This document shows positions 12,604-63,989 of a DNA stretch of 64,000 nt, in pieces; within the stretch, counting starts at the first letter, position 1; the number at the start of each line of letters is the position of its first letter. A program made the translations under genes and the position numbers. The stretch is from assembly GCA_964496095.1 (NCBI GenBank), contig CAZBWU010000003.1:1901-65900 (forward strand), written 5' to 3'. This stretch comes from an uncultured Gammaproteobacteria bacterium (lineage in GTDB: Bacteria; Patescibacteriota; Patescibacteriia; Magasanikbacterales; GWA2-37-8). The notes under the pieces were generated by a model. The model saw only the letters and a program-made list of their open reading frames with translations. It searched no databases and had not been told where the DNA came from.

Positions 12604-13059
12604 TTATTCACTAATTGGCATAAATACTCCTTTGACAATAGGCATATCTCGGAATAAAAGTATTGGTGATTTGGAAACATTGCTTATCTCAAGTGTTTGT
12701 TTACAATCAGTATCAGGTTCAGCAAAATGTGATCCGAGCAAAATGCTTAATCCGATTTGGGCGCACGAACCGCGAGCGCTTAACATGCAGGCGTACTTAC
12801 CATTTAATGTTAATTTTTCTTTAGTAAACCCAAGCACAAACTGACCAGGTTCAAGAATATATCCTTCGTCTGGTATTGAATGTTCTGTGTGTTTTGGTTT
12901 TGTATCTGCTCGCAATATTTGTCCTTCGTCTAAGCAGTGTATTGTTGCATCGAGAGTAAATGTATAGCTTGCGCCTTTAATATTAGCCTCGTTAAACGAA
13001 TCAATACCAAGCTTACCTTCTTGTACCACCTCCTTAATTTGTTGAGCAGAGAGAATCAT
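12604..13059 (-). CDS. dcd: dCTP deaminase family protein (dUTPase fold)
   Basis: ARGSCAQIGLSIL resembles the Dcd GRSSLARLGL motif, ~150 aa. Start trimmed to the internal Met (MILSAQQIKE) to avoid overlapping the helicase gene. Confidence 0.6.
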   Translation of the reverse strand: MILSAQQIKEVVQEGKLGIDSFNEANIKGASYTFTLDATIHCLDEGQILRADTKPKHTEHSIPDEGYILEPGQFVLGFTKEKLTLNGKYACMLSARGSCAQIGLSILLGSHFAEPDTDCKQTLEISNVSKSPILLFRDMPIVKGVFMPISE

Positions 13060-13069
13060 ACTAAAAATA

Positions 13070-16012: not shown

Positions 16013-16020
16013 AAATTGTT

Positions 16021-16045
16021 AGATAAAACAGCCCTTTTGGGGCTG
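16021..16045 (-). terminator. rho-independent terminator after the ABC transporter gene
   Basis: Hairpin cagccc-tttt-gggctg (16029-16045) followed on the minus strand by TTTTATCT. Confidence 0.55.
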
Positions 16046-16087
16046 CTTTATTATAAACGAAATGAGTCAGTGAAGCAAGGAGATTTT

Positions 16088-17848
16088 TTAAGCAATAAAC
16101 CCGCCTGCCTGCACTTCCCAGAGTTTTTTATACAAGCCTTTTTCTTGCTGTAATAATTCTTGATGGGATCCGTTCTCTACAATCTTACCCTCTTTAATCA
16201 CGATAATTCTATCCATTTTCATAATCGTAGATAAACGATGAGCCACCACAATCACAGTCTTGCCTTTTATAAGGACATCCAGGGCTTTTTGAATCAATTG
16301 TTCAGATTCAGAATCAAGACTAGAAGTCGCTTCATCTAGAATAAGTATTGGTGCGTTGTGCAGAATCGCCCTAGCTATAGCTACGCGCTGACGTTCACCA
16401 CCGGATAATTTTACCCCTCTTTCACCTACAAAAGTATTATACCCTTCTGGCAAGTCTTTGATAAATTCGTGACAGTGAGCCAGTTTGGCAGCTTTAATAA
16501 CTTCTTCTTCGGTGGCGTCTGGTTTGCCATAGCGAATATTTTCTAGCAAGCTTCTGTGGAAAAGAATTGGATCTTGCGGAACCATGCTAACATTTTTCCA
16601 TAAACTTTCCATTTTGACATGGCTGATATTTTGCCCATCAATCACAATACTTCCTGCGCTTACATCGTACATGCGCAAAAGCAATTTAATGATTGTGGTT
16701 TTACCTCCTCCAGATGGACCGACTAAAGCCACCTTTTCTTTGGCAGAAATACTAAGGTTGAATTTTTCTAGAATAGGACGAGTTTTATGGTAGAAGAAAT
16801 CAACTTTGTTGAATTCAATTTTACCTTCGGTAATTTTTAAGTCTTTGGCATTTTTAGTGTCTACTATGCTGTGCGGTTCACTTAAAACAGCGCTCATCTC
16901 ATCCGCTTCAGCCAGGCTTTCATATATATCTCGAATTACGCGACCAAAATCCCATGTTCTCATAATAACAATCAATATGTATGACTGTATGAGAATAAAA
17001 TCACCAATTGTTAAAATATTTTGTTTCCATAATAAAATAGCAATATAAAAAATTCCGACTTCTAAAACTGTAGTGAGTAAAGCTTGAGTTGCCTCATAAA
17101 CATTGCTCAGATTCCAGGTAAATAAGCGTAGTTTTTTTACGGTACCAATCGCTTTGGCAAAGTTTTTTACTTCAGCCATATAGCCGCCAAACAATTTAAC
17201 GTTGGTATTATTTGTTATTGTATCTGCTAGAATTCCAGTCGCGGAAGAATCTGCTTCGCTTCGCGCGAGATCGTATTTGAGCTTAAATTTTGTAAACAAT
17301 ATATTTATAATAAAAAAGATGGTAATCCAAACGCCGATTGCGATAGCAAGATAAGCATTCTTTCTAATTAAAACAAAGATTATTAAACTTATATTTATTA
17401 ATAATTGTAAAATATCAAAAGATAACTTATCTGTAATATGTTCGAATGACCTGGTAAAACGATTTACTTTTTTTACAAGTGACCCAACAAAATTATCATT
17501 AAAATAAGCAAAAGAATGCTTGTGAATGTATCTAAAACAAAAATCAGACAAATTTACCATTACGGAAACTTGAAAATAAGAGATAAAAAAAGTGCTGATA
17601 CGCCAAAACATCCAGCCGATAAATTCTATAACCGCAATAATAAACAGGTTGTGAATCAGCTGAGGTGCCAAAATTTCTTTTGGCTGTGATTGGGCCAAAA
17701 GGTCAAAGATTTTTTTAAAATACAAGGGGGTTATAACAGTTACAGCCGAAGCTAAGATAACAGCAAAAAACACAACCAGCGCTGAAATTTTGTGTTGCTT
17801 TATCTGGTCCCAATATATTTCAATTGTTTTCTTTGTATTTACTTGCAT
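16088..17848 (-). CDS. ABC transporter, fused permease/ATP-binding (MsbA-like exporter)
   Basis: Six-TM N-terminal domain, Walker A GPSGGGKTT, signature LSGGERQRVAIARA, Walker B ILILDEATS. Confidence 0.85.
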   Translation of the reverse strand: MQVNTKKTIEIYWDQIKQHKISALVVFFAVILASAVTVITPLYFKKIFDLLAQSQPKEILAPQLIHNLFIIAVIEFIGWMFWRISTFFISYFQVSVMVNLSDFCFRYIHKHSFAYFNDNFVGSLVKKVNRFTRSFEHITDKLSFDILQLLINISLIIFVLIRKNAYLAIAIGVWITIFFIINILFTKFKLKYDLARSEADSSATGILADTITNNTNVKLFGGYMAEVKNFAKAIGTVKKLRLFTWNLSNVYEATQALLTTVLEVGIFYIAILLWKQNILTIGDFILIQSYILIVIMRTWDFGRVIRDIYESLAEADEMSAVLSEPHSIVDTKNAKDLKITEGKIEFNKVDFFYHKTRPILEKFNLSISAKEKVALVGPSGGGKTTIIKLLLRMYDVSAGSIVIDGQNISHVKMESLWKNVSMVPQDPILFHRSLLENIRYGKPDATEEEVIKAAKLAHCHEFIKDLPEGYNTFVGERGVKLSGGERQRVAIARAILHNAPILILDEATSSLDSESEQLIQKALDVLIKGKTVIVVAHRLSTIMKMDRIIVIKEGKIVENGSHQELLQQEKGLYKKLWEVQAGGFIA

Positions 17849-51423: not shown

Positions 51424-52800
51424 ATGAATTACCTCAAAAATTTTTCTCTTAGTGGCTTGACCGTGATTTTTTTGTCTATTTTTATAATTGGCAATGCCAA
51501 CACCGGTCTAGATGCGGTCTCTTTTCTACTTATCGCTTTTATTGTTTTACAAAAAATATTTGGAGAGTACTTTATTCTTATTCCTCTGGCGCTCCGCACT
51601 ATCCTGGACTATTGGCGAGATTATAATATTTTTTCATTTCATTTTTTTAACTTTAATATCAACGCCGCCCTCTCTTTATTTTTATTGATTTGGTCAATAA
51701 TATTTTTCATTAAAAATCATGAGTACTTCCGAAAAATTCCCTTAAATATAGTCTGGCCTGTGTTTATAGCTTGGTGCGCACTCTCATCTATTTATACCTA
51801 TAATATCTCATCAACATTTATTGAAACCTTAAAACTAACTAATTTGTTTAGCTTGTTTGGCATCTGCTATATTATGTCAGAAAAAGACGGAGGTAAATTC
51901 AAAAATACTTTTCTGAAATCCATGACAATAACTGCGGCCGTTCCAATCTCTGTTGCCACCTACCAGCTCATTACCAGAACTGGTATGACTATAGAAGAAA
52001 TCTCAAACCGAATATATGGCACTTTTACACACCCAAACGTCTTGGCCGCATTTGCCTTAGTAATGTTAATTGTTTTAGTTAACGAATTTTTAAAGACCAA
52101 AAAAGAAAATCGAAAGAAACTTAATCTGCTAAAATTCTTTAGCGTAATTCTTCTTCTAGTAATAGCCTTTACCTACACCCGCATCGCTTGGATTGGCACC
52201 GCCTTTTTGTTTATAGTGCTTGGCTTGGTCTATTACAGAAAAATTCTTCTATATACGCTAGGCGCCATTGTATTATTTTTTACTCTATTCTACCCTATCA
52301 ATAAATATCTAACCTCGCATTATAGCCTAAACTTACAAACAAATAGTCTGATAGCTCGCCTCACATCTCGCAACCCAGATTCTGATTCAGTCAGCTGGAG
52401 AACCGGGATTATTATGAAAACACTGCCGTTAATCAGAAAAAAATATTTAGCAGGCTATGGCTATGGCACTTTCCCTCGGGTGTGGGATGATAACAAAGAT
52501 CTGCAAAATATTTGGGACAATACTTCCGAAGCCCACAATGACTATATAAGAATCGCGCTTGAGTCAGGTATTGTTGGTTTGATTTTATTCCTTACTATCT
52601 TTACTAGTCTGCTATATAAACAGATAGGCATTACTTTCAAAACTCATTTTAAAAATATTGTTTTTCTCACTAGTATTTTTATCTACCTCATTTTAAGCCT
52701 CTCAGATAATATGCTTCATCATACGCCGGTAATCTGGTGGCTTTGGGCGGTATGGGGAGTTTGGATGCATGAAACAAAAATAGTTAACGCTAATTCTTAG
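51424..52800 (+). CDS. O-antigen ligase/polymerase-like (Wzy_C) membrane protein
   Basis: ~12 TM helices and the periplasmic-loop motif AHNDYIRIALESGIVGL. Start moved from 51406, which is inside the MITE, to the next Met (MNYLKNF). Confidence 0.65.
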   Translation: MNYLKNFSLSGLTVIFLSIFIIGNANTGLDAVSFLLIAFIVLQKIFGEYFILIPLALRTILDYWRDYNIFSFHFFNFNINAALSLFLLIWSIIFFIKNHEYFRKIPLNIVWPVFIAWCALSSIYTYNISSTFIETLKLTNLFSLFGICYIMSEKDGGKFKNTFLKSMTITAAVPISVATYQLITRTGMTIEEISNRIYGTFTHPNVLAAFALVMLIVLVNEFLKTKKENRKKLNLLKFFSVILLLVIAFTYTRIAWIGTAFLFIVLGLVYYRKILLYTLGAIVLFFTLFYPINKYLTSHYSLNLQTNSLIARLTSRNPDSDSVSWRTGIIMKTLPLIRKKYLAGYGYGTFPRVWDDNKDLQNIWDNTSEAHNDYIRIALESGIVGLILFLTIFTSLLYKQIGITFKTHFKNIVFLTSIFIYLILSLSDNMLHHTPVIWWLWAVWGVWMHETKIVNANS

Positions 52801-53220
52801 AATCCGCCAGAGGCGGATTGTTAGCCAGATGGATTCAAACTTCACCACTTTCAGTGGTTCTTTTTCATCTCATCGCTAACAACAAAAAAACCATCCAGAG
52901 AGAGTCACCTAAATAACTAATCGAAATTATTTATTCAGGCGATCGGATGGTGATTTTGCAAGACAGATAAATCTGTCTATTTTTATTTACTAACTTGTTT
53001 GCCCACTCCTTATTAAGGAGGGGGGGAGGTCTTATCTATAACCCCTCCTGCGCCTCCCCTTCTTAAAGGGAGGACAACTAGTAAATACAAATAGCTAGAT
53101 TTGAATTGTAGATTTGAAAGAGCGGTAAAGCCGAGGAGGAAGCGCGTAGGGTGACCAGGCTAACGCGTGTCGCGCAGCCCGGCAATAGCCAGGCGACATC
53201 CTCCTGTTTGGGAGTGGCGG

Positions 53221-54000
53221 TTAGCCGCCCCCGACCTTCACGACCACACTGGCCCGGTAGGGCCCGCACGCGATCGTGTAGGTGTAGGTGCCGGGGTTAC
53301 CATTCCCGGCCAGAAATATACTGCTACGGCCGGTGCCTGGCCGATCGATGGCGGGCCAATCACCATCGCCACTGGAGTCGCAGGCTGCTGCCAATGACTC
53401 CCAGTCGAGGTAAATTCTGTCGCCAGCCGCGACAGAATACCACCCACCGGTGTTCCAGGTGGCGGGCGTGGGCACGCCGGCGATGTTGACAAGGACATCA
53501 AAGCGCATCGCGTAGGCCACCAGGGCCTTCGCGTCGCTCATGTCCTCATCCTCGCACACCAGACCGTAGATCGTCTCGCCGAATGGCAGGACGACCTCAG
53601 TCTGCCCAGTCGTCGGCGGCAGGTCCTGGGCCACCCAGTCCCCGCTAACCTGCGCCACGCCGTTGATGGCGGTCGCCCGTTCGCAGGTAGTGGACGAGAT
53701 GGCACTTACCACCTCGTAGCCGAGGACCACCGGCTCCCCAACACGGAGGTTCCGCACCTCCTGCGGGGCCGCCAGCTCCGCGGCCGTGAGGCTCACGGAG
53801 AGAACAGGCCTCGGCGGCAGCGGCAGGCCGATCTCCTGGTTGCCCAGGAACCCCACTGCGGCCGCCGGCGGCTTGCCCGGAGGCTGGTCATCGCCACCCC
53901 CGCCAGCGGGGGTGAAGCCGCACCCCTCGAGAAGGAGTGCGAGCGCGAAGACGAGCGCGCAGAGCGCGCACACCAAGAGGCATTTACGGATGTCCCACAT
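53221..54000 (-). CDS. GC-rich island gene 4: secreted lipoprotein
   Basis: MWDIRKCLLVCALCALVFALALLLEGCG has a lipobox, and AGGGGG lies 8 nt upstream. GC content ~68%. Confidence 0.55.
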   Translation of the reverse strand: MWDIRKCLLVCALCALVFALALLLEGCGFTPAGGGGDDQPPGKPPAAAVGFLGNQEIGLPLPPRPVLSVSLTAAELAAPQEVRNLRVGEPVVLGYEVVSAISSTTCERATAINGVAQVSGDWVAQDLPPTTGQTEVVLPFGETIYGLVCEDEDMSDAKALVAYAMRFDVLVNIAGVPTPATWNTGGWYSVAAGDRIYLDWESLAAACDSSGDGDWPAIDRPGTGRSSIFLAGNGNPGTYTYTIACGPYRASVVVKVGGG

Positions 54001-54457
54001 GATGGACACCCCCTTTCCGGCCCAAGCGGGCCATTACCCAACGGGCCCAGAAAATGTCAAAGTACCGAACGACACAGCATGTGTCGCCCTTCATTGAGTT
54101 TAGAAAATCAATTCTAAACTCTAGAAGAACAACATTTTTTTAAAATGCTATACATTTAGTATAGCATTTTAGTTTTTTTCTGACTATTTATAATCTTTTA
54201 GAACCTATCATTCCCCTACCTAGTAGGAAAATAAATTAGTTTTAAACTTTAAACCTTGCTTCCGACGAGGTGTGTGTTACCACAACACCTCGTCGTCCTC
54301 ACCTAGACCTGGCCGTGGCGCTCGAAACTCGAGCGGCCAGATTGGCCATGCGATGGTCCAGAGTGAGATTTTGGGCAGCTTGTTAAAGCCACCACTTCCC
54401 TGGGGGTAAAACCCCTCCTCCGATTAGGGCAGGTCGGATGAGGCTCGAGGCGCGCTA

Positions 54458-55129
54458 CTACGGCAGGGTGTGCCGGTTGCGCCCGTCGATGTTGCAGCCG
54501 AAGCCACCCTCCCCACCGGCCAGCCAGTAGGCCGGTTGGGTCGCCGGCTGGCCCGGCCACGACAGGTTGCAGGTGCAGCCCTGCGGGAGGTGGGCCAGCC
54601 ACCACGCCGGACCCTTGGTGAAGTCCTCCCAGCGGAGGACCCACAGGATCGTGACCGACGTGGCCGTCGTCGGCGCGACGCGGTTGCCGCTGCCGTTGGC
54701 CGCGAGGGGCACCGGGTCGCCGACCGGCGTGGCCGCCGGGGCGGCGTACCACTGGACGCCCGTGGTGATCCGCTCGAGATCCGTGCTGGCCGCGCACGTG
54801 ATCGACCAGGGCTGGCCGGTCGGGCTGCAGACGTTCGGGCTGGCCGTGTTGCAGGACCAGCCGGTCTCGACCGTGCAGGTCGAGCTGCAGCCGTCGCCGT
54901 TGGCGAGGTTGCCCTGGTCGCACTGCTCGGCGCCGGCCTTGATGCCGTCGCCGCAGATGGCGGCGGACGGGGCGTCCGGGGGCGTCACCGCACCGTCGAT
55001 CGGGGGCGGGTTGGCGGCGTCGACCTCGTCACCGCCGGAGGGGTTCTCGCCCTCCATGGTGCAACCGACGCCGATGACCGCCGTGATGCCGATGATGGAC
55101 GCGCACAGGAACTTGCTGAACTTGAACAT
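54458..55129 (-). CDS. GC-rich island gene 1: secreted Cys-rich protein with Myxococcales-type Cys repeat
   Basis: GGAGG SD 5 nt upstream, signal peptide MFKFSKFLCASIIGITAVIGVGC, and the repeat ICGDGIKAGAEQCDQGNLANGDGCSSTC. Confidence 0.6.
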   Translation of the reverse strand: MFKFSKFLCASIIGITAVIGVGCTMEGENPSGGDEVDAANPPPIDGAVTPPDAPSAAICGDGIKAGAEQCDQGNLANGDGCSSTCTVETGWSCNTASPNVCSPTGQPWSITCAASTDLERITTGVQWYAAPAATPVGDPVPLAANGSGNRVAPTTATSVTILWVLRWEDFTKGPAWWLAHLPQGCTCNLSWPGQPATQPAYWLAGGEGGFGCNIDGRNRHTLP

Positions 55130-55626
55130 GAGAACCTCCGCTTGAGAATGCGTCCACCGCCGGAATGGCGACAGACATTGGGAAACGTTGGGTGCCGAAC
55201 AACTTGGTTTGATTCCTTGCATCTCCAATACGATAGGAGATGAGGATTCTTACCTTGTTCTCGACATTTCAATATCCCTTATTAAATAAAGAATGGTTTT
55301 AATTCTTTGCTTAATGCGGGATATTGATCCGGGTGGTTCTTCTTTTTTGATTGGTTTGATTTGTAAAGAGCTGATTTCCATCTCTATCATTCCCCTATCA
55401 TATAAGGAAATGATTCGATGTGGCCAGGTGCGTGAGCAGAGCTGGCCGTCGATCCGAACGAGGGCCTCCTAGATCCTCGTCGGGGTGATGGCGACTGCAG
55501 TGGCTCCGGATGGAGCCAACGAACAGCACGCACAGGATGTGCAGGTTGACGACGCGGGCGACGCGCGTCGTCGCTCCGACCGGTTGCACTTCCGGTCGGA
55601 GGGGGGTGGGGTCAGAGCGCGACGCG
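55130..55626. repeat. island upstream module copy A (leader + promoter + terminator block)
   Basis: 55257-55626 is ~100% identical (one 1-nt indel) to 56586-56962. 55111-55270 is identical to 57496-57670 apart from 1 nt. Confidence 0.9.
55214..55246 (-). promoter_or_regulatory. conserved 5'-leader hairpin (catctcc...ggagatg) ~85 nt upstream of the start codon
   Basis: Retained in all three leader copies (55214-55246, 56553-56585, 57609-57641) even in the diverged copy B. Confidence 0.5.
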
Positions 55627-56460
55627 GACACCGCCGAAGCCGGCACCGACGATGCTCTTGTCGAGCGGCGCCATCTCCGGCGCGTCGTAGGTCTGCCGGA
55701 GCACGTCGCCCCGCAGGAACACCTCGACACCGAGCTTCTTCGACTCGACCTGGTAGACCGCCTCGAAGGCCGCGCCGTAGAAGCGGAGGGTCGGGGTGTC
55801 CAGCATGTTCCCGAGGTGGATGCGCTGGGTGATCGTGGCGCCGCCGGCGAGCATGATGTGCTCGCTGACGTAACCGTGGATCATCGCATCCGCCCCGTAC
55901 ATGCCCTTCCCCTCGTCGCCGGCGGCGCCACCCTCGTTGATGCCGAGGCGGCCGGTCAGCCGCATCCGACCGTCGAGGAAGGTACCGGAGAAACCGACGA
56001 AGCCGACCGGTCCGGCCTCGCCCATGTACCCGCCCAGGAGCCCGATGTGCAACCGGCCGGGCTTCGTCTGCCGGGTGGCGAGGCGCGCGAGCGCCTCGGC
56101 CTGCGCCTTCTGCGCGGCCGCCAGCTCGTCGAGACGGGCCTTGTCGGCCTGCTGGGCCGCGAGCGCGTCGGCCTGCTGCTTGGCGAGCTCGTCGAGCCGC
56201 TTCTGCTGGTCGCTGCCCTCCATCTCGATGCCCTCGTCGCCGGGGGCCGTGGTGAAGTGGGTGCACGCACCCACTTCGACTTCGACGGTCTTGGTGACGA
56301 GCGGGCCGCCCTCGATGGTCTTCATGCCGTCGGGGCAGGGCTGCGTCGTGACGATGACCTTGTGGTTGTCATCCTCCGCCGCCGCCGGCTTGACGCCGAT
56401 GACGGTGAGGCTGGCGACCGCGACGATGGACGCGCACAGGAACTTGCTGAACTTGAACAT
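55612..56460 (-). CDS. GC-rich island gene 2: secreted protein with coiled-coil and beta-rich C-terminal domain
   Basis: GAGGAG SD, signal peptide MFKFSKFLCASIVAVASLTVIGV...AAA, an Ala/Gln-rich coiled coil, and an alternating-hydrophobic C-terminal half. Confidence 0.55.
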   Translation of the reverse strand: MFKFSKFLCASIVAVASLTVIGVKPAAAEDDNHKVIVTTQPCPDGMKTIEGGPLVTKTVEVEVGACTHFTTAPGDEGIEMEGSDQQKRLDELAKQQADALAAQQADKARLDELAAAQKAQAEALARLATRQTKPGRLHIGLLGGYMGEAGPVGFVGFSGTFLDGRMRLTGRLGINEGGAAGDEGKGMYGADAMIHGYVSEHIMLAGGATITQRIHLGNMLDTPTLRFYGAAFEAVYQVESKKLGVEVFLRGDVLRQTYDAPEMAPLDKSIVGAGFGGVRVAL

Positions 56461-56962
56461 GACGTAGCTCCTCATGAGAGAGTGGTGCGTCCATCGCCGG
56501 AATGGCGGACGGACATTGGGAACCATTCGGGTATCGAACAACTCAGTTTGATTCCTTGCATCTCCACTACGATAGGAGATGAGGAGTCATTCTTTGTTCT
56601 CGACATTTTCAATATCCCTTATTAAATAAAGAATGGTTTTAATTCTTTGCTTAATGCGGGATATTGATCCGGGTGGTTCTTCTTTTTTGATTGGTTTGAT
56701 TTGTAAAGAGCTGATTTCCATCTCTATCATTCCCCTATCATATAAGGAAATGATTCGATGTGGCCAGGTGCGTGAGCAGAGCTGGCCGTCGATCCGAACG
56801 AGGGCCTCCTAGATCCTCGTCGGGGTGATGGCGACTGCAGTGGCTCCGGATGGAGCCAACGAACAGCACGCACAGGATGTGCAGGTTGACGACGCGGGCG
56901 ACGCGCGTCGTCGCTCCGACCGGTTGCACTTCCGGTCGGAGGGGGGTGGGGTCAGAGCGCGA
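56461..56962. repeat. island upstream module copy B
   Basis: See copy A. The leader part (56461-56588) has diverged by ~20%, while the 370-bp promoter/terminator block is identical. Confidence 0.9.
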
Positions 56963-56963
56963 C

Positions 56964-57524
56964 CTACTTGGTGATCGAGACGACGGTCGCCGCCTTGCTG
57001 CCGAGGTTGCGGGCACGCCGCAGGTTGTTGAACTGCGCCTGGAGGCGCAACATGTCCGCCGCGAAGCGGCGGATGAACCACCCCTGCATGTGATCGCGGT
57101 TCTGGGCGTGCTTGGCCATGGCGACGGGGTCCGGCGTCGCGCAGTCCGCGCTGCAGCCGTCGCCGTCCTGCGTCACGCAGACCGCGTCGTCGCCGGGGCA
57201 CTCGCTGTCCCGGGTGCAGAACGCACCCTTCTGGGGTCCGCTGTCGCAGTGACGACCGTTGTCGCACGCCTCGCCGTCCTCGACGACGTCGTTGCCGCAG
57301 ACGGCGTCCCACGACATGTTGATGGTGGCGGTGACCCAGCTGCAGTCCGCGCTGCAGCTATCGCCGTCGACCTTGTTGCCGTCGTCGCACATCTCGTCGC
57401 CGGCGGCGGTGCCGTCGCCGCAGACGACGGGCGGATCCTCCGCCGACGCCGACTTGACGCCGACGGTGGCGACCACGAGCCCGAGGATGATGGACGCGAA
57501 CGTGAGCTTGCTGAACTTGCACAT
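56964..57524 (-). CDS. GC-rich island gene 3: secreted Cys-rich protein with Myxococcales-type Cys repeats
   Basis: GGAGG SD, signal peptide MCKFSKLTFASIILGLVVATVGV, and repeats VCGDGTAAGDEMCDDGNKVDGDSCSADC and VCGNDVVEDGEACDNGRHC. Confidence 0.6.
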   Translation of the reverse strand: MCKFSKLTFASIILGLVVATVGVKSASAEDPPVVCGDGTAAGDEMCDDGNKVDGDSCSADCSWVTATINMSWDAVCGNDVVEDGEACDNGRHCDSGPQKGAFCTRDSECPGDDAVCVTQDGDGCSADCATPDPVAMAKHAQNRDHMQGWFIRRFAADMLRLQAQFNNLRRARNLGSKAATVVSITK

Positions 57525-57740
57525 GAGAACCTCCGCTTGAGAATGCGTCCACCGCCGGAATGGCGACAGACATTGGGAAACGTTGGGTGCCGAACAACTT
57601 GGTTTGATTCCTTGCATCTCCAATACGATAGGAGATGAGGATTCTTACCTTGTTCTCGACATTTCAATATCCCTTATTAAATAAAGAATGGTTTTAATTC
57701 TTTGCTTAATGCGGGATATTGATCCGGGTGGTTTCGCTGT
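57525..57740. repeat. island upstream module copy C (leader identical to A; promoter part truncated/diverged beyond 57740)
   Basis: Matches the A leader and the first ~85 nt of the AT-rich promoter block. Confidence 0.85.
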
Positions 57741-58102
57741 TTGGTTTGGTTGGGTTGTATGGTTTCACATACAAACTCATTCGCTCGACAATACTTTGCT
57801 TGCAAAGTATTGTTCTCGCTCATTTCGATTGTAAAGAGCTTATGCCTACTATTCTTGTTTGAACTACCAATTGCATATATAACTCAATTGATAATTCCAT
57901 TTAAAAACAGTAAAACCTCTACTTTGTGAGAGAGGCTACATATATAGACTATTTACCTGCTTTGTTGATGGCCTAGACAATACTCTCTCACGATATTGCG
58001 TTGGCCGTTAAAAAATCAACAATAGAATACTATACCACAAACTGGAGATATTGTCAAGAGTTCAATGAAAGTATAGCGGAATAATCTGTATTTTTTGGCT
58101 AA

Positions 58103-58136
58103 CTATAAACAAAAATGCCCTAGTATTAGGGCATTT
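58103..58136 (-). terminator. rho-independent terminator of the giant gene
   Basis: Perfect stem aaatgcccta-gtat-tagggcattt followed on the minus strand by TTGTTTAT. Confidence 0.55.
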
Positions 58137-58160
58137 ACTATCCAGAAAACTTTTTTATTC

Positions 58161-61100
58161 CTATCTTCCGCCAAGTATTTGTTGAGCAATCTTTTCACGC
58201 TGGCCAGCTTGACCATTAATCATAGCTATTGCTTCATTGTGCGTATATCTAATTACTTCACCTGTTTTAGAATTATTTTCAATAAGTTCGTCCTTATCGA
58301 CTGTAAATGTGCTACCCTCAGAAATAAACAAACGCTCGTTACCATTATCCATTAATCGAAATCCATTACTGCCGTTAGCCAACATGTCGGCCTTACTATC
58401 ATTAGACTCCTTGATTAAATCTATGATAGACATTTTAATTCCTCCAAATTTATCAGATGCTCCCCCTTTATAGGTGGCAATTGCCTTTTGTATATAATTA
58501 TAATTTTGTCGATCGGTAGCATCTAGGGCGGTACCGGCAACAATCTTATTTTCTATGCTTTCCATTGGACCTACCAAATGAGACGTCACCATATCTTCTA
58601 ATACCCTAATACTTCCTGGATCTACCTGAAAAAAATGACTCTCAGCGACCAAAGAAACATCCTTTAAAATTGTTTCTAAATCGTTTCCAATTTTTGGAAG
58701 CTCCTCTACAATTTCTACTATTTTTATTTCTTGTTCATGAGGTGTTGTATCAGGTGTGACTACTGCTGACTTCGCACCAGCTCCTGTATCAGGAGTAGTT
58801 CCACCACCCGAGGTCTGTTTATCAAAATCAACTCCAAAATCTTTAGCAATACCCTTAGCAAACTCTCCTGCTTGTGTGCCAGCCTTACCAAGACTATCAG
58901 CGGTATTCTTGACGGCATTCGTTAATGCCTGTTTATCTTGTTCTGTAGGCGGCACAGCTGCCATGGTTTCGCCAGCGTTTCCACTGCTCGTAGGCAAAGC
59001 TTCTACTACCTGACCACTTGGCCTAAATGTTTCTAGGGTTTTAACCTTAATTGTCCTTTGTTCGCCAAGCAAGCCCTCTCCAATAGGCACTGGATGACGG
59101 TGACCTTTGGAATCAAGCACGCCCTGAGCTCGGTTTAACACCTCAACATGCTCGGCTCCGGCTTGAGCAAATTTTATTTTATCGCCTTCTATCTCTGCCA
59201 ACACGGCTCGCTCATCAGCAGTCATCTCGGATGCCGGAACATTATTTTCGGTGTGTTCTCTATATGGATGATCACCTTGCATCTCATTTATTTTGCTGGC
59301 ATTATTCCACATTTGTTTATCAGGATTTTTATCAATAGCTATCTTGCGTCCACCCACAACTCGCATTTGATCCTTGGTAACATAGCCATCTTTACCCTCT
59401 ACAGCACTAAGAATTGGCTTACCTTTTTCATCTACACCAAAACTATAGATATGCCCATGAATATGAAGATCTACCCCCTTACCAGTAAGTCTGGCGTTGG
59501 CAAAATCTTGATTTTCTTCTCCTTGCATAGATCTCCACAACCCCTCTACCATCTTATGATCGGAACCATCTGTCTCTTTATATTTTGCTGCAAACGCTTT
59601 CCAATCAACTTTAGCGCTGGTCTTACCTTTACCTACCCAATCTTCAATGTATTTGAGTTGCGGACGACTAAATTTGAGGCTCTCTAAATATTTTGCCGCT
59701 CTTTCCGGACCGCCTTTGTCTAAAATTTCTTCAAAAATTACTTGCTGGCGTTCGGCTCCCACTTCTACCTCGGTATTTATTTCATATTTAATAAAACCGT
59801 GATGAGAATGCACACCGCTTCCACCTTCACTAGCTGACAATATACGTTGCAAAGATTCCGAATTGTTCAATTCTGGGAAACCTTTTTCACCGGTGACTAA
59901 TTTTTCTAAATGGGGATAAAAATCTTTATCTAATTTATTGTCGACGCCAAATTCTCGCACCGCTGATCCTGGTGTACGAACTTCAGCTATAGGTTGATCT
60001 GCTTCGACCGCAGTTCCTGGTTTATGCGAATCTCCTCCTGGTTGAGGCGCTGCTGGAATTGGAACTGGTATTGGTTCCGGGTGCGCTTGAGCAACCGCAT
60101 CATTCATCGCTCTTTTTAATATACCGTGGTCTGTTTGGCCCCCACCAGTTATCTTATCTTTTATGCTTTCAAGAGTTTCAATCGGATTAGCCACTGCATG
60201 TACGACACGCCCATAACTTTCCAAAGCCCGGCTAGCATTATGGATAGGTTCCTCCCAAATTTTTAAAACTTGACCGCTTTCAACACGATCAATAATCGCA
60301 TCTATTTGCTCTCCAGGTGAAGCGTGTGATGAAAGAAGGGAGCCGTAGATACCAACCGCGCGAGCGATAGTGCCCAAGGCTTTGACAAAATCCATAGCCT
60401 TACCAGTTCCACTCGTACCTTTCTTTGCTCCTTGCCCAGCCAAAGAACGCACTGTTTCCCAAGCAGCCCTTACCGTTACATCTTTGGCCACAAAACCAAA
60501 CTCCGATTCACCGTTAATGCTACCAGCATTCTTATACGTGTGTTCTCTACGTGCTTTTTGGACTCTTTCTGCTACAGAACCAACCGCATAGCCAATACCA
60601 CGCGCAAACAAACCGCCGCCAAGTGTCAGGAGCGTGTTGAGGCCATCTTTGGCAATTTGCGCCCCAGAAACTTTGGCGTGAATATACGATTCTAATAGAC
60701 GCCTGACTTCCGCATCTCTCTCTTCTCTGGCTTCATCCGTGTCTTCTTGGTGTTTGATCGAAATTGCCCATATTCTTTCTGTGATCTGCTGTTTAGCTTC
60801 TGGGCTAATTTTTTTGGTATCATTAATTATTGATTTTAAATCTTCCAAACGAACTCCCACTCCTTCATCCAAAGCCGAGGGCTCTCCTTTTTTTGTTCTT
60901 TCTGAAGATTGGAGTAATTTTTGATATGCATCAAAAATTGATTCCACAAATACCTTAGATTCTTTAGTGCCTTTTCTCCACTCGGCTATATCTCCCTTAC
61001 CAAAAGCTGCAAGGCCTAAATCAGTGATAGTCTTTATACCTAAGACTGAAGTTATTGTATTATAAGCAACTTTTCTGGAAAATTTACGTGTTTCTTTATC

Positions 61101-63989
61101 TTTAAAGGCATCCTTAAAACGCTCCCACCGACTCTTGTCTGGTGGAGGAGGAACTACTGTATCGGCTGGTTTTTTCTTGCCAAAACCTAACAATCCACCA
61201 ATGCGGGATATGATGCCTTTTTTTTCTGGAACAGCAACTATAGAGCCGTCTAAGAATTCAGATTCTGGGGACAATCCTTGTAATGCATCTTGAAATTGTT
61301 GATAGACATCTTTATTTGGATCATTTTTTACTAATTCTATAAATTCTGCAAGTTTAATTTTTACATTGTCTGTAGCAGCTAAGAATGCTTTAGACTCTTC
61401 TTCTGATGTGACTGGTAAATTACGTGCGTCATCAATAATACTAACTAGAGCGTCATAAGAGCCAAGATATTTATTTACTAGTTTAACATTCTTTTTATCC
61501 TTATATAAATTATTAAAAACTTCAGCTAATTTTGTAAGGTCTCTTTCATAGTTAATCAAACGTTCCTCTGCCATAGTTTCTGGTGAAGGTAAATCATTGA
61601 AATCTTCATACAAAGATGTGACACCACCTTCTATTTCCGTAATTAGAGGTTCCAACTCATTCTTACCATCAACTGCTTCGGCTGAAGTAATTTTAACTTC
61701 AATTTCATTAATTTTTTTTTCTATAGCTTCTGTACCAACTTTTTGGGGTAAATAATAATCTCTTAATCTTTGCAGATTTTTTTTAGTATTAGCAAGGGAT
61801 CTTGTTTGAATTTCCGTTTTTCGTTCTGGCAGAGCGCGGATATCTGCCGATAATTGACCAGAAAGAATTGTTTCTATCTGAGAAACCAAACCTTTCAATT
61901 TGCCATAATCTGTACACGTCTCTGCTTCTGTTATTTTACTCTCTAGATCTGCCATTGTAGCATCTATGGCCAGTGTCGAGATTCTTTTCTCTAATCGAGA
62001 CTCCAGGAGTGTAAAATAATTCTTATGACCAATCAAACTAGCTTCCAAATCCAAAGCTTCTATATCTTTTAATATCTCCTCAAGGAGATTATCTAATTCA
62101 GCATTTGGAGTTGAATTTATCAGTTCAATCTTATCATGAATAGGTGGCAACTTTGGTTCTAAGACAGTGAGCCTATTATCAGCGGCAAGACGGCTTCTTA
62201 AATCTCTAAATCTATTTGGAATGATTCTATCTATCCTAAATCTCTGCGCATCGGTAAGCAAAGACAGGTCAGGTCCAAGTGGCGGAAGGACATCCGTTCC
62301 AGCCCGAGGAAGTGGATCAAAATCCGGAAACTCTACATCTGGCTCTGATGAGCCAGCAGGTGGAAGCGCATTAAAATCTTCGTATAATTGCAAAATATCT
62401 CTATCTAGCACCAAAAGGAGAGGTTTTAATTCAGACTTATTAATAAAAGGTACTTTAGCCAAGGTCAAATTTGCCTCAATTTCATCAATTTGAGCTTTCA
62501 ATCTATCTGAATAGGCTTTTGTATGCAATCCATTTTTTACTATAGCTAAATTTTCTTTATACTCCCGTAATTTTTCTTCTTGCTCTGATGTCACAGATTC
62601 AACAGTATCCGAAGCACCAGTAGCTGCGTCAGGAGTTGGAACTGTTTTAGCAGGAAGCTTGCTTATATCTGCGCGCAGAGCATCAAGAATACCTTGTATG
62701 GTTTGAAGTATACCTTCCAAGGTGTTTTTATCGGTACATCTATTTGCCACTTCTAAATTCTTTTTCAACCGTATAAGCCCTGATTCAAGCCTAATCATCT
62801 CCTCATCTTCCCCATCTCTTTTATCTAGCATACCTCCGAGTAACACAAGCTGATCTCGACAATGTCGCAATTTTACTTTTTGCTGATCAGAAATAGGCTC
62901 GGTAGGTGGAGCTACATCCCCTTTAGCCGGAAGTGCCTCTATTTCCGCGACTAAATTACCAAGGCCTGTTTTTATACCATCAAGCGCAACAGCCATATCG
63001 GCACGCGTACGAATATGGCTCAATCTGGTATTCCCTATTTTGACATCAACTTCATCAAGCTTATCCTCCATACCTGGAGTACCTTGTTTTTGCATCAAAA
63101 GATCTTTTAACCTTTGAAGTTCCGTCCTATACCCTTGACGCACATTTATCTGTTCATTAGTAATAAACTCTTGAGAGGCCGGATTTCCAGCTACTCTACT
63201 CTCAAATTCCTGTTTTACTTGAGGCAGTAACTTATTTTCAATTTTCCCAAAATACTTGCCTACAGCTTCCATTTTTTTATCATAAACTTCAAGGTCATTT
63301 GTGCGCGCAGCCTGGTTTAAACATCTTTCTATATCAGTCACCCAGCCAGATATTTTGGATTTCTGTTTATCAGACATCATTTCATCACGAACCGTCACTA
63401 AAATACCTAGTTTACGCTCTGCTTTTTTTCGCTTTTCTATTCTATTCTCAGACTTCTCAGCATCGCTTTGACTTGGATTATCTGCACCATTCTCAGCCTT
63501 AGGTTCAGGCACTTTTTTCTTCGCCTTCAAAGCCTCCATTTCTGTATGAAATTGCTCCAATAAATCATCGACTTCTTTAGTTTTATTCTTGGAAAAATTC
63601 CATTTTTTATGATCAAACGCACTCTTCTCTGTTAAAAACGCCTTAATAAGTTCTTTTACCTTTTCTGTTAAACCAACCATCTCGGCACTATCTTTACCAA
63701 ATTTTTTTTCCATTTCTGCAATCTCTGGTCCAAGAGTTTTAAGATCTTCATCGTGTTTTTTTAATTTTTGACTATAGATTTTTTCTGGATCTAGCAATAC
63801 TTCTTTTTTAACGGCCAATGTTCGAAGTCCAACTTCAATATGTCCTAAAAGATTTTCAACAGTGGCCTTATTTTTACTAGCATAGTCAGACGACTTAAGG
63901 CTCTCTTCTAAACTCTTACATCGACGCAACAGTTCTTTTATCTTAGTTCTACTTTCAGGCAACGCGGCAGTCCCTGATAAATCTTCCAA
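58161..63989 (-). CDS. giant protein (>1,942 aa; N-terminus probably beyond the window end), largely alpha-helical/coiled-coil with a Gly/Thr-rich linker
   Basis: Single uninterrupted minus-strand frame with host-like AT-rich codon usage. The only large ORF on either strand here. I could assign no catalytic motif with confidence (GVDLHIHGHIYSFG and HSHHG noted). Confidence 0.7.
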   Translation of the reverse strand: MEDLSGTAALPESRTKIKELLRRCKSLEESLKSSDYASKNKATVENLLGHIEVGLRTLAVKKEVLLDPEKIYSQKLKKHDEDLKTLGPEIAEMEKKFGKDSAEMVGLTEKVKELIKAFLTEKSAFDHKKWNFSKNKTKEVDDLLEQFHTEMEALKAKKKVPEPKAENGADNPSQSDAEKSENRIEKRKKAERKLGILVTVRDEMMSDKQKSKISGWVTDIERCLNQAARTNDLEVYDKKMEAVGKYFGKIENKLLPQVKQEFESRVAGNPASQEFITNEQINVRQGYRTELQRLKDLLMQKQGTPGMEDKLDEVDVKIGNTRLSHIRTRADMAVALDGIKTGLGNLVAEIEALPAKGDVAPPTEPISDQQKVKLRHCRDQLVLLGGMLDKRDGEDEEMIRLESGLIRLKKNLEVANRCTDKNTLEGILQTIQGILDALRADISKLPAKTVPTPDAATGASDTVESVTSEQEEKLREYKENLAIVKNGLHTKAYSDRLKAQIDEIEANLTLAKVPFINKSELKPLLLVLDRDILQLYEDFNALPPAGSSEPDVEFPDFDPLPRAGTDVLPPLGPDLSLLTDAQRFRIDRIIPNRFRDLRSRLAADNRLTVLEPKLPPIHDKIELINSTPNAELDNLLEEILKDIEALDLEASLIGHKNYFTLLESRLEKRISTLAIDATMADLESKITEAETCTDYGKLKGLVSQIETILSGQLSADIRALPERKTEIQTRSLANTKKNLQRLRDYYLPQKVGTEAIEKKINEIEVKITSAEAVDGKNELEPLITEIEGGVTSLYEDFNDLPSPETMAEERLINYERDLTKLAEVFNNLYKDKKNVKLVNKYLGSYDALVSIIDDARNLPVTSEEESKAFLAATDNVKIKLAEFIELVKNDPNKDVYQQFQDALQGLSPESEFLDGSIVAVPEKKGIISRIGGLLGFGKKKPADTVVPPPPDKSRWERFKDAFKDKETRKFSRKVAYNTITSVLGIKTITDLGLAAFGKGDIAEWRKGTKESKVFVESIFDAYQKLLQSSERTKKGEPSALDEGVGVRLEDLKSIINDTKKISPEAKQQITERIWAISIKHQEDTDEAREERDAEVRRLLESYIHAKVSGAQIAKDGLNTLLTLGGGLFARGIGYAVGSVAERVQKARREHTYKNAGSINGESEFGFVAKDVTVRAAWETVRSLAGQGAKKGTSGTGKAMDFVKALGTIARAVGIYGSLLSSHASPGEQIDAIIDRVESGQVLKIWEEPIHNASRALESYGRVVHAVANPIETLESIKDKITGGGQTDHGILKRAMNDAVAQAHPEPIPVPIPAAPQPGGDSHKPGTAVEADQPIAEVRTPGSAVREFGVDNKLDKDFYPHLEKLVTGEKGFPELNNSESLQRILSASEGGSGVHSHHGFIKYEINTEVEVGAERQQVIFEEILDKGGPERAAKYLESLKFSRPQLKYIEDWVGKGKTSAKVDWKAFAAKYKETDGSDHKMVEGLWRSMQGEENQDFANARLTGKGVDLHIHGHIYSFGVDEKGKPILSAVEGKDGYVTKDQMRVVGGRKIAIDKNPDKQMWNNASKINEMQGDHPYREHTENNVPASEMTADERAVLAEIEGDKIKFAQAGAEHVEVLNRAQGVLDSKGHRHPVPIGEGLLGEQRTIKVKTLETFRPSGQVVEALPTSSGNAGETMAAVPPTEQDKQALTNAVKNTADSLGKAGTQAGEFAKGIAKDFGVDFDKQTSGGGTTPDTGAGAKSAVVTPDTTPHEQEIKIVEIVEELPKIGNDLETILKDVSLVAESHFFQVDPGSIRVLEDMVTSHLVGPMESIENKIVAGTALDATDRQNYNYIQKAIATYKGGASDKFGGIKMSIIDLIKESNDSKADMLANGSNGFRLMDNGNERLFISEGSTFTVDKDELIENNSKTGEVIRYTHNEAIAMINGQAGQREKIAQQILGGR

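Follow-up and report, generated by a model that had tools for sequence, protein, structure and literature searches.

Near-identical direct repeats between predicted secreted-protein genes in a GC-rich island of a Patescibacteria lineage

The window analysed here, the whole 64,000-nucleotide stretch of contig CAZBWU010000003.1, contains a GC-rich island of 4.7 kb (positions 53,100-57,750), whose 60-78% GC sequence is broken by spacers of 20-40% GC. Four open reading frames (ORFs) on the minus strand, genes A to D, are located in this island, and the spacers upstream of D, C and B carry near-identical copies of one module (M3, M2 and M1, respectively). The three copies, of ~270-540 bp, are direct repeats on the minus strand, all within 2.7 kb, and no further copy is found in the 64-kb window. 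The modules separate genes with a shared 5' untranslated region (UTR) and signal peptide and with divergent mature parts, an arrangement which is also found in a related genome (L089, see below). As far as alignment tells, the payloads between the identical flanks are unrelated or nearly so.

The coding frames of the four genes are backed by the contrast between GC content at third and second codon positions (GC3 and GC2), by signal peptides and by DUF4215 matches. GC3 (Table 1) stands far above GC2 (0.45-0.61) and above the GC3 of host genes (~0.3), which gives the periodicity of real genes under strong GC pressure. An N-terminal signal peptide is found on all four proteins, and a lipobox-like cysteine is recognizable by eye in A and B. 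The proteins B and D are 35% identical over 88 aa, and homologues of B match only at the DUF4215 repeat, including one named Labilithrix (Myxococcota). Neither A nor C has a Pfam match, and C can be aligned to B or D over its first 23-30 residues only, that is, the signal peptide and a few residues more. A word-index search of 5.8 billion clustered proteins and an exhaustive HMMER search of 1.84 billion representatives returned only gene C itself, and its AlphaFold2 model, built without an alignment, is of low confidence (predicted local distance difference test score, pLDDT, 42). A tandem-repeat search revealed no long in-frame repeats in the coding regions.

The sequence-only reading of this stretch had reported two near-perfect direct repeats. 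Both exist, with intervals that were off by 5-15 nt. M1 and M2 share a perfect run of 357 nt (55267-55623 = 56607-56963, offset 1340), which continues for ~12 nt beyond a 1-nt indel in an A run, and overall they are 94.8% identical over 543 nt (55090-55623 versus 56421-56963); the near-identity of this pair was correctly seen, and the second interval given for it begins 7 nt early (370 versus 377 nt, 366 matches). M1 and M3 share a perfect run of 213 nt (55126-55338 = 57521-57733, offset 2395) and are 95.9% identical over 266 nt (55091-55356 versus 57486-57751). This second repeat is longer than had been claimed, and the partner of 55111-55270 is 57506-57665, not 57496-57670; the single difference noted at the start codons is the T/G at 55125, in the codon that distinguishes MFKFSK from MCKFSK. 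About 87 nt, including a 59-bp palindrome, are exactly common to all three copies. The only length difference in the modules is A3 versus A4 beside the palindrome, and the tandem-repeat search gave nothing relevant, with neither a homopolymer switch nor a long tandem repeat in the modules.

Along the gene strand, a module consists of the 12-mer GTCGCGCTCTGA, two GC stem-loops, ~110 nt of further GC-rich sequence, a short hairpin ending in GGGGAATGATAG, a purine-rich tract, the box TCTTTACAA, the 59-bp imperfect palindrome, a 139-nt leader, GGAGG, ATG and 12 codons of a Sec-type signal peptide. The 12-mer encodes the true V-A-L-stop end of gene C only, and after gene D, which has its own TAG, it is an untranslated relic; the earlier statement that each module opens with the last codons and stop of its upstream gene therefore holds for the copy behind C and fails behind D. 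The 3' tail folds with -61.7 kcal/mol (z -5.0), and the palindrome, whose 26-nt arms are 85% complementary, with -22.5 kcal/mol (z -5.7). The leader hairpin and the module end at the Shine-Dalgarno (SD) sequence and signal-peptide start, as previously described, are both present: the leader folds with -47.2 kcal/mol (z -4.0), with paired changes between its variants a and b, and ends in GGAGG and ATG. The middle block is indeed AT-rich (32-37% GC), and its label as a promoter is unproven, the only sigma-70-like match on the gene strand being a weak one (TGGCCA-18-TATGAT, 9/12). In M3 an extra segment of ~70-80 nt (57760-57828) directly follows the TCTTTACAA box and contains a perfect palindrome with 12-bp arms (57788-57813); it is absent from M1, M2 and one module of L089, and has TACAA at both sides, like a small insertion.

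The TCTTTACAA box is nearly confined to spacers, which hold three of its five copies in the window (1.2 are expected by chance in the whole window) and three of four in each of the relatives L087 and L089. A plain -35 element was considered and rejected: the box resembles the -35 context of the strong predicted promoter of the right flank (CTCTTGACAA), but most copies lack a -10 element at 16-18 nt. Its opposite strand reads TTGTAA-18-TATCAT (9/12) in the window, and an antisense promoter may lie there.

Table 1. Positions of the island genes, modules and flanking elements in the window
Feature	Position	Strand	Description
Left-flank non-coding element	52885..52996	+	~70-nt long hairpin, then terminator hairpin AGACAGATAAATCTGTCT with T-run; left border of variable island
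Gene A	53221..54000	-	259 aa, lipoprotein-like, N-terminus ...LLLEGC/GFTPAGGGGDD; GC 67%, GC3 0.81
Spacer M0 (B to A)	54001..54457	-	Outside the near-identical repeats, same architecture: GC-rich 3' tail, short hairpin and GGGGAATGATAG motif, GC-richer leader, SD
M0, promoter-like sequence	54186->54158	-	TAGTCA-17-TATACT
M0, palindrome	54141-54171	-	Perfect, 13-bp arms
Gene B	54458..55129	-	223 aa, predicted secreted protein or lipoprotein, one DUF4215 cysteine-rich repeat; GC 72%, GC3 0.96
M1 (C to B)	55091..55623	-	Module copy
M1, first 12 codons of B	55094-55129	-	
M1, leader a	55130-55268	-	SD 55135-55139
M1, palindrome	55269-55327	-	
M1, box	55361-55369	-	TCTTTACAA
M1, short hairpin	55386-55414	-	
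M1, GC-rich tail	to ~55430	-	
M1, stem-loops	55574-55601, 55548-55572	-	
M1, relic/end codons	55612-55623	-	GTCGCGCTCTGA
Gene C	55612..56460	-	282 aa, predicted secreted; signal peptide, coiled-coil stretch, Gly-rich beta-rich C-terminal part; GC 70%, GC3 0.95
M2 (D to C)	56421..56963	-	Module copy, M1 parts at +1340
M2, leader b	56461-56608	-	~87% identical to leader a
M2, palindrome	56609-56667	-	
M2, box	56701-56709	-	
M2, stem-loops	56914-56941, 56888-56912	-	
Gene D	56964..57524	-	186 aa, predicted secreted, DUF4215-type cysteine-rich repeats; GC 69%, GC3 0.96
M3 (upstream of D)	57486..57837	-	Module copy, includes first codons of D
M3, leader a	57525-57663	-	
M3, palindrome	57664-57722	-	
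M3, box	57829-57837	-	TCTTTACAA
Right-flank non-coding region	57829..58126	-	Predicted strong promoter CTCTTGACAA-17-TGGTATAGT (58057->58029) pointing into the array; 76-80% identical to relatives

The pattern of differences between the copies indicates how their identity is maintained. The three copies were aligned from the A-rich tract to codon 25, and the runs of informative sites were assessed by permutation. In M1, the first 8 informative sites match the module of C, the next 27, which cover the whole leader, match that of D, and the following 5, in the first 12 codons, match that of C again; 10 runs occur among 52 sites (P=2e-5). These mosaic tracts imply several recent exchanges of tens to hundreds of bases rather than one duplication, and recent gene conversion or unequal crossing-over between the direct repeats is supported; gene conversion and recombinational shuffling were among the explanations given in the sequence-only reading.

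The chromosome segment around the island has a background of 36-37% GC and is packed with housekeeping and cell-wall genes, including the ATP synthase operon, metG, lysS, serS, alr, mreBC and pbp2, along with transketolase, murB, mraY, a Mur ligase gene and a pcrA-like helicase gene. The latter (13073-16012, minus strand) encodes a PcrA/UvrD-like helicase of 980 aa whose C-terminal part matches models of the Cas4/AddB-type PD-(D/E)xK nuclease. The best match of AtpD (92%) is a contig of a metagenome-assembled genome (MAG) mislabelled 'Gammaproteobacteria', followed by MAGs of Patescibacteria, Saccharibacteria, Falkowbacteria, Minisyncoccia and Nomurabacteria, and relatives of the Wzy-like protein carry the names Magasanikbacteria, Parcubacteria and Patescibacteria. 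On the basis of both proteins, the host is a bacterium of the Patescibacteria (candidate phyla radiation, CPR); its genome is AT-rich and ultra-small.

The island is located between the gene for the Wzy-like protein and a gene for a ~1,900-aa protein; the latter is an ORF of 1942 aa (58164-63989, minus strand) without Pfam or PADLOC match, and PADLOC found no defence system in the four payload proteins either. Its composition deviates as that of a genomic island does (60-78% versus 36% GC; GC3 0.81-0.96 versus ~0.3). The signs of mobility, a tRNA or att site, an integrase and flanking direct repeats, are absent, and the flanks are not repeats of each other. A tRNA scan of the 64-kb window found none, and Pfam and NCBIfam scans of ~40 ORFs found no integrase, transposase, other recombinase or reverse transcriptase in it. 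The island has no match by blastn in phage and plasmid collections. Neither a search of 52500-58500 at E<=1 nor one of the whole window at gathering score gave an Rfam match.

The same locus was found in five further related genomes, gathered via the Wzy-like protein, of which three were recovered from 2-3 samples each. Identity of this protein to that of the window is 74% in L087/L088 and in L090-L092, 65% in L089, 62% in L086 and 59% in L095/L096. In all of them, the order murB ... Mur ligase - PALP enzyme - GHL15 - Wzy is kept, and Wzy is followed by GC-rich genes (60-78% GC, GC3 0.61-0.96) with AT-rich spacers. In L087, L089 and L095 the island reaches the gene for a protein of ~1,550-1,900 aa, the counterpart of the 1942-aa ORF, and the other contigs end earlier. 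An acquired genomic island would be expected to be absent from this site in close relatives; here, a GC-rich island is present in five of five, with differing payloads. Among the called genes in the ~10 kb to the Wzy side of the island in the relatives, a recombinase is likewise absent. The convincing ORFs of the relatives lie on the minus strand, carry signal peptides or lipoboxes and have adhesin-type domains, namely Big_7, Calx-beta, Big_9/cadherin-like, TSP3 and Disintegrin. Public plus-strand gene calls in L087 (8581-13084) and L090 (7676-12167) look wrong, since the minus-strand ORFs there have signal peptides, Pfam matches and GC3 far above GC2. GC-rich islands of this kind are therefore probably mis-annotated and under-reported in MAGs, because gene callers pick the wrong strand.

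Payload sets vary by genome, and only cassette A, the constant first cassette beside Wzy, has positional counterparts everywhere, and those in L086, L087, L089 and L090 carry its lipobox motif. The counterparts are 26-43% identical, with little in common beyond the lipoprotein N-terminus, as compared with 64-91% for GHL15. When profiles were compared, gene C showed no relation to the L087_c/L089_c family. Only three non-coding stretches of the window can be aligned to the relatives: the left flank, the right flank and 54112-54189, the promoter region of cassette A, which matches L087, L089 and L090 (83-89%).

In contrast to the payloads, the spacers between the secreted-protein genes keep a common design. 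In the relatives they have 24-40% GC and the same order of hairpin, box and palindrome as in the window. Nearly all spacers of the window, L086, L087, L089 and L090 consist of a short hairpin, GAT(A/G)A, a purine-rich tract, (G/C)TTCTTTACAA or AGCTCTTTACAA, an imperfect palindrome of ~43-60 nt with ~20-25 predicted pairs, a GC-richer folded leader, SD and ATG; before cassette A a promoter-like hexamer takes the place of the box. The apical arms AAAGAAT/ATTCTTT are constant in palindromes that otherwise vary in sequence. Among ten aligned palindromes, 17/24 pairs are changed on both sides, a count which is not independent, as the sequences were chosen as palindromes. The extra segment of M3 is 88% identical to segments in two modules of L089 (14964-15058 and 16211-16305), and the two arms of its palindrome have changed in concert. 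Between the window and L089, 65% of the four-fold degenerate (4-fold) sites of GHL15 differ, and spacers conserved against such saturation are resident, constrained parts of the locus, that is, AT-rich scaffolds and not debris. The conservation of island and spacer architecture at one locus across this Patescibacteria lineage had been missed by the sequence-only reading.

L089 also has a perfect 629-bp direct repeat of its own (14660-15288 = 15907-16535, period 1247), which begins at the stop codon of one payload gene and extends to codon 20 of the following one (MNTLKTTLFAIVIAIAGTAA), and the neighbouring junction copies are 85% and 81% identical. No near-identical module repeats are found in L087. 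Homogenized modules therefore arise repeatedly and locally at this locus.

Both borders of the island are conserved as well. The left-flank element is 85-90% identical in L086, L087, L089 and L090 despite the saturated 4-fold sites of the host genes; a consensus fold was obtained, and Rfam holds no match to it. Its counterparts are located at 11877-11977 in L086, 7337-7448 in L087, 11419-11525 in L089 and 7140-7259 in L090, and its first bases in the relatives encode the C-terminal ...KNHPERVT* of the preceding gene (Wzy in L087, a DUF559 gene in L086). This DUF559 gene, with a Vsr-like endonuclease fold, lies between Wzy and the left-flank element in L086 (11578-11904), L090 (6702-7091), L091 (1521-1910) and L092 (3223-3612), and not at the locus in the window, L087 or L089. 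A G/C-rich remnant of 37 nt in the window (53041-53077) matches DUF559-adjacent sequence of L090, but lies on the other side of the left-flank element.

At the right flank, homology among the window, L087 and L089 breaks off precisely at the first TCTTTACAA box. The predicted promoter is followed in the 3' direction by a conserved structured RNA that ends in an intrinsic terminator (AGCCTCTCT..AGAGGTT and TTTACTGTTTTT); promoter and RNA together span 58057->57880 on the minus strand of the window, ~13470->13285 in L087 and ~17995->17810 in L089. The upstream GTGAGAGAG could pair with CTCTCTCAC of the terminator stem, which suggests a switch, and the RNA is a candidate small RNA or regulated leader outside Rfam. 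The four co-oriented genes lie 3' of this promoter, with the conserved terminator in between, and each of them has its own AT-rich block and leader.

The GC richness of the payloads bears on their origin. At 4-fold sites of B, C and D, A accounts for 0-1%, T for 4-6%, C for 56-62% and G for 33-40%. Their proteins are composed of Gly, Ala, Arg and Pro (GARP) to 0.30-0.36 and of Phe, Tyr, Met, Ile, Asn and Lys (FYMINK) to 0.16-0.20, as against 0.15-0.25 and 0.25-0.40 in host proteins, and such a make-up is typical of high-GC genomes. P0002 and P0007, the two closest DUF4215 relatives with contigs that were examined, lie on contigs of uniformly 55-63% GC. Because of this codon and amino-acid composition and the GC-rich contigs of the DUF4215 relatives, transfer from high-GC bacteria is the simplest origin of the payloads.

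At the same time, the host genomes are saturated, with 48-72% of 4-fold sites differing, and GC3 is 0.6-0.96 at the locus in every lineage, in genomes of 36-43% GC. In the homologous pieces L087_d/L089_e and L087_c/L089_c, about half of the 4-fold sites differ, and both members are GC-rich. By a rough estimate, passive decay from 0.95 would have led to ~0.6 since the split of the window and L087, and to less than ~0.45 since deeper splits. Accordingly, either GC-rich genes are re-supplied again and again, or GC is kept high in place. The GC-rich 3' tail, the leader and the signal-peptide start are common to unrelated payloads and have a sharp start at the stop codon or directly beside it, and therefore behave as resident parts of the scaffold. 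This, the lack of any homologue of gene C and the lasting GC richness in saturated lineages all disagree with a single old transfer. Two further ideas were rejected. Hypermutation as by a diversity-generating retroelement (DGR), as a cause of payload divergence on the time scale of the sampling, does not fit the island copies from different samples, which are identical or 1 base apart, nor the lack of a reverse transcriptase in the window; and a monotonic GC3 gradient, as a sign of ordered insertion, is not seen, as only cassette A is consistently lower and the others are unordered. L089 contains an ordinary AT-rich gene of 303 aa (12797-13708, minus strand; 4-fold A+T = 77%) within its GC-rich island, so island location alone does not make a gene GC-rich.

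Taken together, the repeats are probably paralogous inter-cassette modules in a tandem array of genes for secreted proteins and lipoproteins, within a hypervariable GC-rich island of a Patescibacteria lineage. In the mechanism that we propose, the two GC stem-loops behind the upstream stop codon would halt transcription or stabilize the 3' end, and the AT-rich spacer would serve as promoter or operator region of the downstream gene. The folded leader, GGAGG and the 12 signal-peptide codons would provide unrelated payloads with common expression and export signals. Homologous recombination among the three direct copies keeps long tracts identical, as the mosaic of 100%-identical tracts shows, and the same process could delete, duplicate or exchange payload genes; the direct orientation of the copies agrees with the earlier proposal that the modules are substrates for such events. 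With the module as a homology arm, the locus would become a shuffling site for surface or secreted proteins.

Several points weigh against this explanation. The GC hairpins which had been read as a 3' terminator region exist and are stable (55574-55601 and 55548-55572), but have no T-run and are not listed by the terminator scan, so that this label, like that of a promoter, remains an inference. At 16-18 nt from the TCTTTACAA box, a -10 partner is not consistently present. The junction of leader a and gene B has no second witness, as an exact look-up of gene B found no contig, and the assemblies JACCDN01 and JACCDK01, which provide witnesses for other junctions (see below), may share reads with the window. 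A high-GC donor of gene C is suggested by composition only, with no homologue at hand, and a single old transfer does not explain GC-rich payloads in saturated lineages.

A more far-reaching version, which we regard as a tentative minority possibility, takes the locus as a fixed one-site expression platform without a visible recombinase, on which high-GC adhesin-like genes, foreign-looking or orphan, are repeatedly plugged into AT-rich scaffolds (hairpin, TCTTTACAA box and palindrome), shuffled and replaced. The genes would either be captured from a high-GC partner without an integrase, or their GC would be kept up in place. In the latter case, GC-biased gene conversion at a permanent hotspot would be the likely cause, and the constrained scaffolds alone would stay AT-rich.

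Recent tandem duplication of module and gene, followed by replacement or divergence of the payloads without continuing conversion, would account for the tracts of 100% identity and for tandem direct units that recur every 1340 nt in the window and every 1247 nt in L089. It is nevertheless unlikely, since the module of B changes partner at least twice, for which several exchanges are needed, and since divergence after duplication is not credible for unrelated payloads between flanks with 357 identical non-coding bases.

An integron-like, site-specific system is a less obvious candidate, and we consider it quite improbable. Its sites, at which cassettes with their own promoters would enter and leave, would be the hairpin, purine tract and TCTTTACAA box together with the palindrome; the right-flank promoter would correspond to Pc and the right flank to attI. 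Such a system would agree with cassettes that all have one orientation and lie 3' of a strong, conserved predicted promoter, with flank homology that ends exactly at the first box, with a box nearly confined to island spacers, and with cassette content that differs among genomes between conserved flanks. It would also agree with imperfect palindromes of ~43-60 nt that keep their structure while their sequence varies (17/24 pairs doubly changed), but these were picked as palindromes and their 'covariation' is partly built in. A 1340-bp contig of one period in another assembly could be added. However, no recombinase is encoded in the 64-kb window or among the called genes ~10 kb to the Wzy side in the relatives, no attC core pair RYYYAAC...GTTRRRY occurs on either strand of the island (52997-57837), and identity extends over hundreds of bases in mosaic tracts, as from homologous exchange.

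The sequence-only reading had also raised a repeat-induced assembly artefact, by which collapse or looping would have produced the repeats, their order or their copy number. Identical stretches of 213-357 bases do exceed short-read length, and in a de Bruijn graph the C unit would form a loop. Three public contigs, which belong to two other assemblies (JACCDN01 and JACCDK01), are 100% identical to the window and break off within the repeats, which is usual for short-read contigs at genuine repeats. L002 joins unique sequence upstream of M3, via D, to M2, L003 (JACCDN010939746.1) joins leader a, via D, to M2, and L001 (JACCDN010583733.1) joins M2 (100%), via leader b and C, to M1; they thereby reproduce the junctions D-module, module-C and C-module, and the identical protein of gene D is found on contigs of both assemblies. 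L001 has the length of one 1340-bp period plus 15 nt and resembles a graph loop, and is compatible with such a loop, with tandem amplification or with an excised circle, so that the copy number of the C unit requires long reads. L003 stops at the same base as L001 inside the identical module (equivalent to 56837/56851 of the window), which suggests a graph branch there, such as another variant, a circle or a tandem copy would cause in that sample.

Copy-specific differences also argue against an artefact: leader a versus leader b, five differences between the first codons of D and B, and the extra segment of M3. The strongest argument is provided by the relatives' islands, since related genomes from other studies share the architecture and one has an analogous perfect repeat (L089, 629 bp). 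An artefact is therefore unlikely, and we would give it hardly any chance. One practical consequence is that identical modules break short-read assemblies, and public copies of this island are fragments of 0.8-1.4 kb.

It is equally far-fetched that the AT-rich block is a mobile element resembling a miniature inverted-repeat transposable element (MITE), carrying a promoter and inserted repeatedly between GC-rich genes: the segment after the box in M3 and two L089 modules (~70-80 nt, 88%; missing from M1, M2 and one L089 module; TACAA at both sides) and the long inverted repeats in the spacers would fit, but copies occur only inside the island, with none elsewhere in the window, in GTDB genomes, in viral contigs or in phage and plasmid records, and the repeat units extend into GC-rich UTRs and coding sequence without ending in inverted termini. 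In line with this, a 22-mer of the palindrome region has 0 matches in GTDB genomes and 0 in viral contigs, and in metagenomes it occurs on two short contigs, both pieces of this island.

The Patescibacteria are thought to live attached to other microbes, and how they recognize and hold their hosts is, to our knowledge, largely unknown. The locus is a concrete candidate for host interaction, as it is conserved, recombines and holds changing sets of predicted secreted, adhesin-like proteins, and the composition of the payloads may hint at hosts or gene donors. A GC3 of 0.8-0.96 that persists in genomes of 36-43% GC, across lineages with saturated synonymous sites, challenges a simple picture of transfer followed by amelioration, and makes the locus a natural system in which to test for GC-biased conversion or codon selection in bacteria.

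The array is of a known kind, that of multigene loci for surface proteins which share conserved 5' modules. What is unusual here are the high-GC, partly orphan payloads in an AT-rich CPR genome, the scaffold of box and palindrome, and the fixed single site with no recombinase seen. Like an acquired genomic island, the locus shows a sharp GC contrast (60-75% versus 36%) and accessory, adhesin-like secreted payloads with domain relatives in high-GC bacteria. In contrast to such an island, it occupies the same site in all relatives examined, has conserved AT-rich scaffolds and shows no amelioration despite saturation.

With integrons and with clusters of attC sites lacking an integron-integrase (CALIN), it has in common a one-directional array of short single-gene units with a structured, imperfect palindrome of variable sequence in between, a strong predicted promoter at one end, and variable content between conserved flanks. 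It differs in lacking IntI, which a CALIN does not require, and the R''/R' core sequences; moreover, its palindrome lies ~130-160 nt upstream of the next ATG in an AT-rich block, its cassettes appear to carry their own leaders, and its identical tracts are long and mosaic.

The variant surface glycoprotein (VSG) genes of trypanosomes, with 70-bp repeats and conserved 3' ends, and pilE/pilS of Neisseria are cassette systems in which gene conversion provides surface variation. In these, as in the window, a variable coding body is flanked by a conserved repeat upstream and by a 3' end that is conserved as well, and these two bound the conversion tracts. The window differs in that no silent archive or single expression site is visible and every copy has full predicted expression signals.

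The vsp genes of Mycoplasma bovis and the vlp genes of Mycoplasma hyorhinis are clustered genes for surface lipoproteins, with a highly conserved 5' non-coding region and signal peptide, and these conserved parts are substrates of intrachromosomal recombination. Compared with these, the window island has no invertase or other site-specific recombinase, no homopolymer switch in a promoter and no long in-frame coding repeats; its modules share the 3' flank too, and its payloads, with 69-72% GC in a genome of 36% GC, are mostly unrelated. The likeness consists in a tandem cluster with a shared 5' region and signal peptide and differing mature parts, in a small AT-rich genome and in a cell that lives on other cells.

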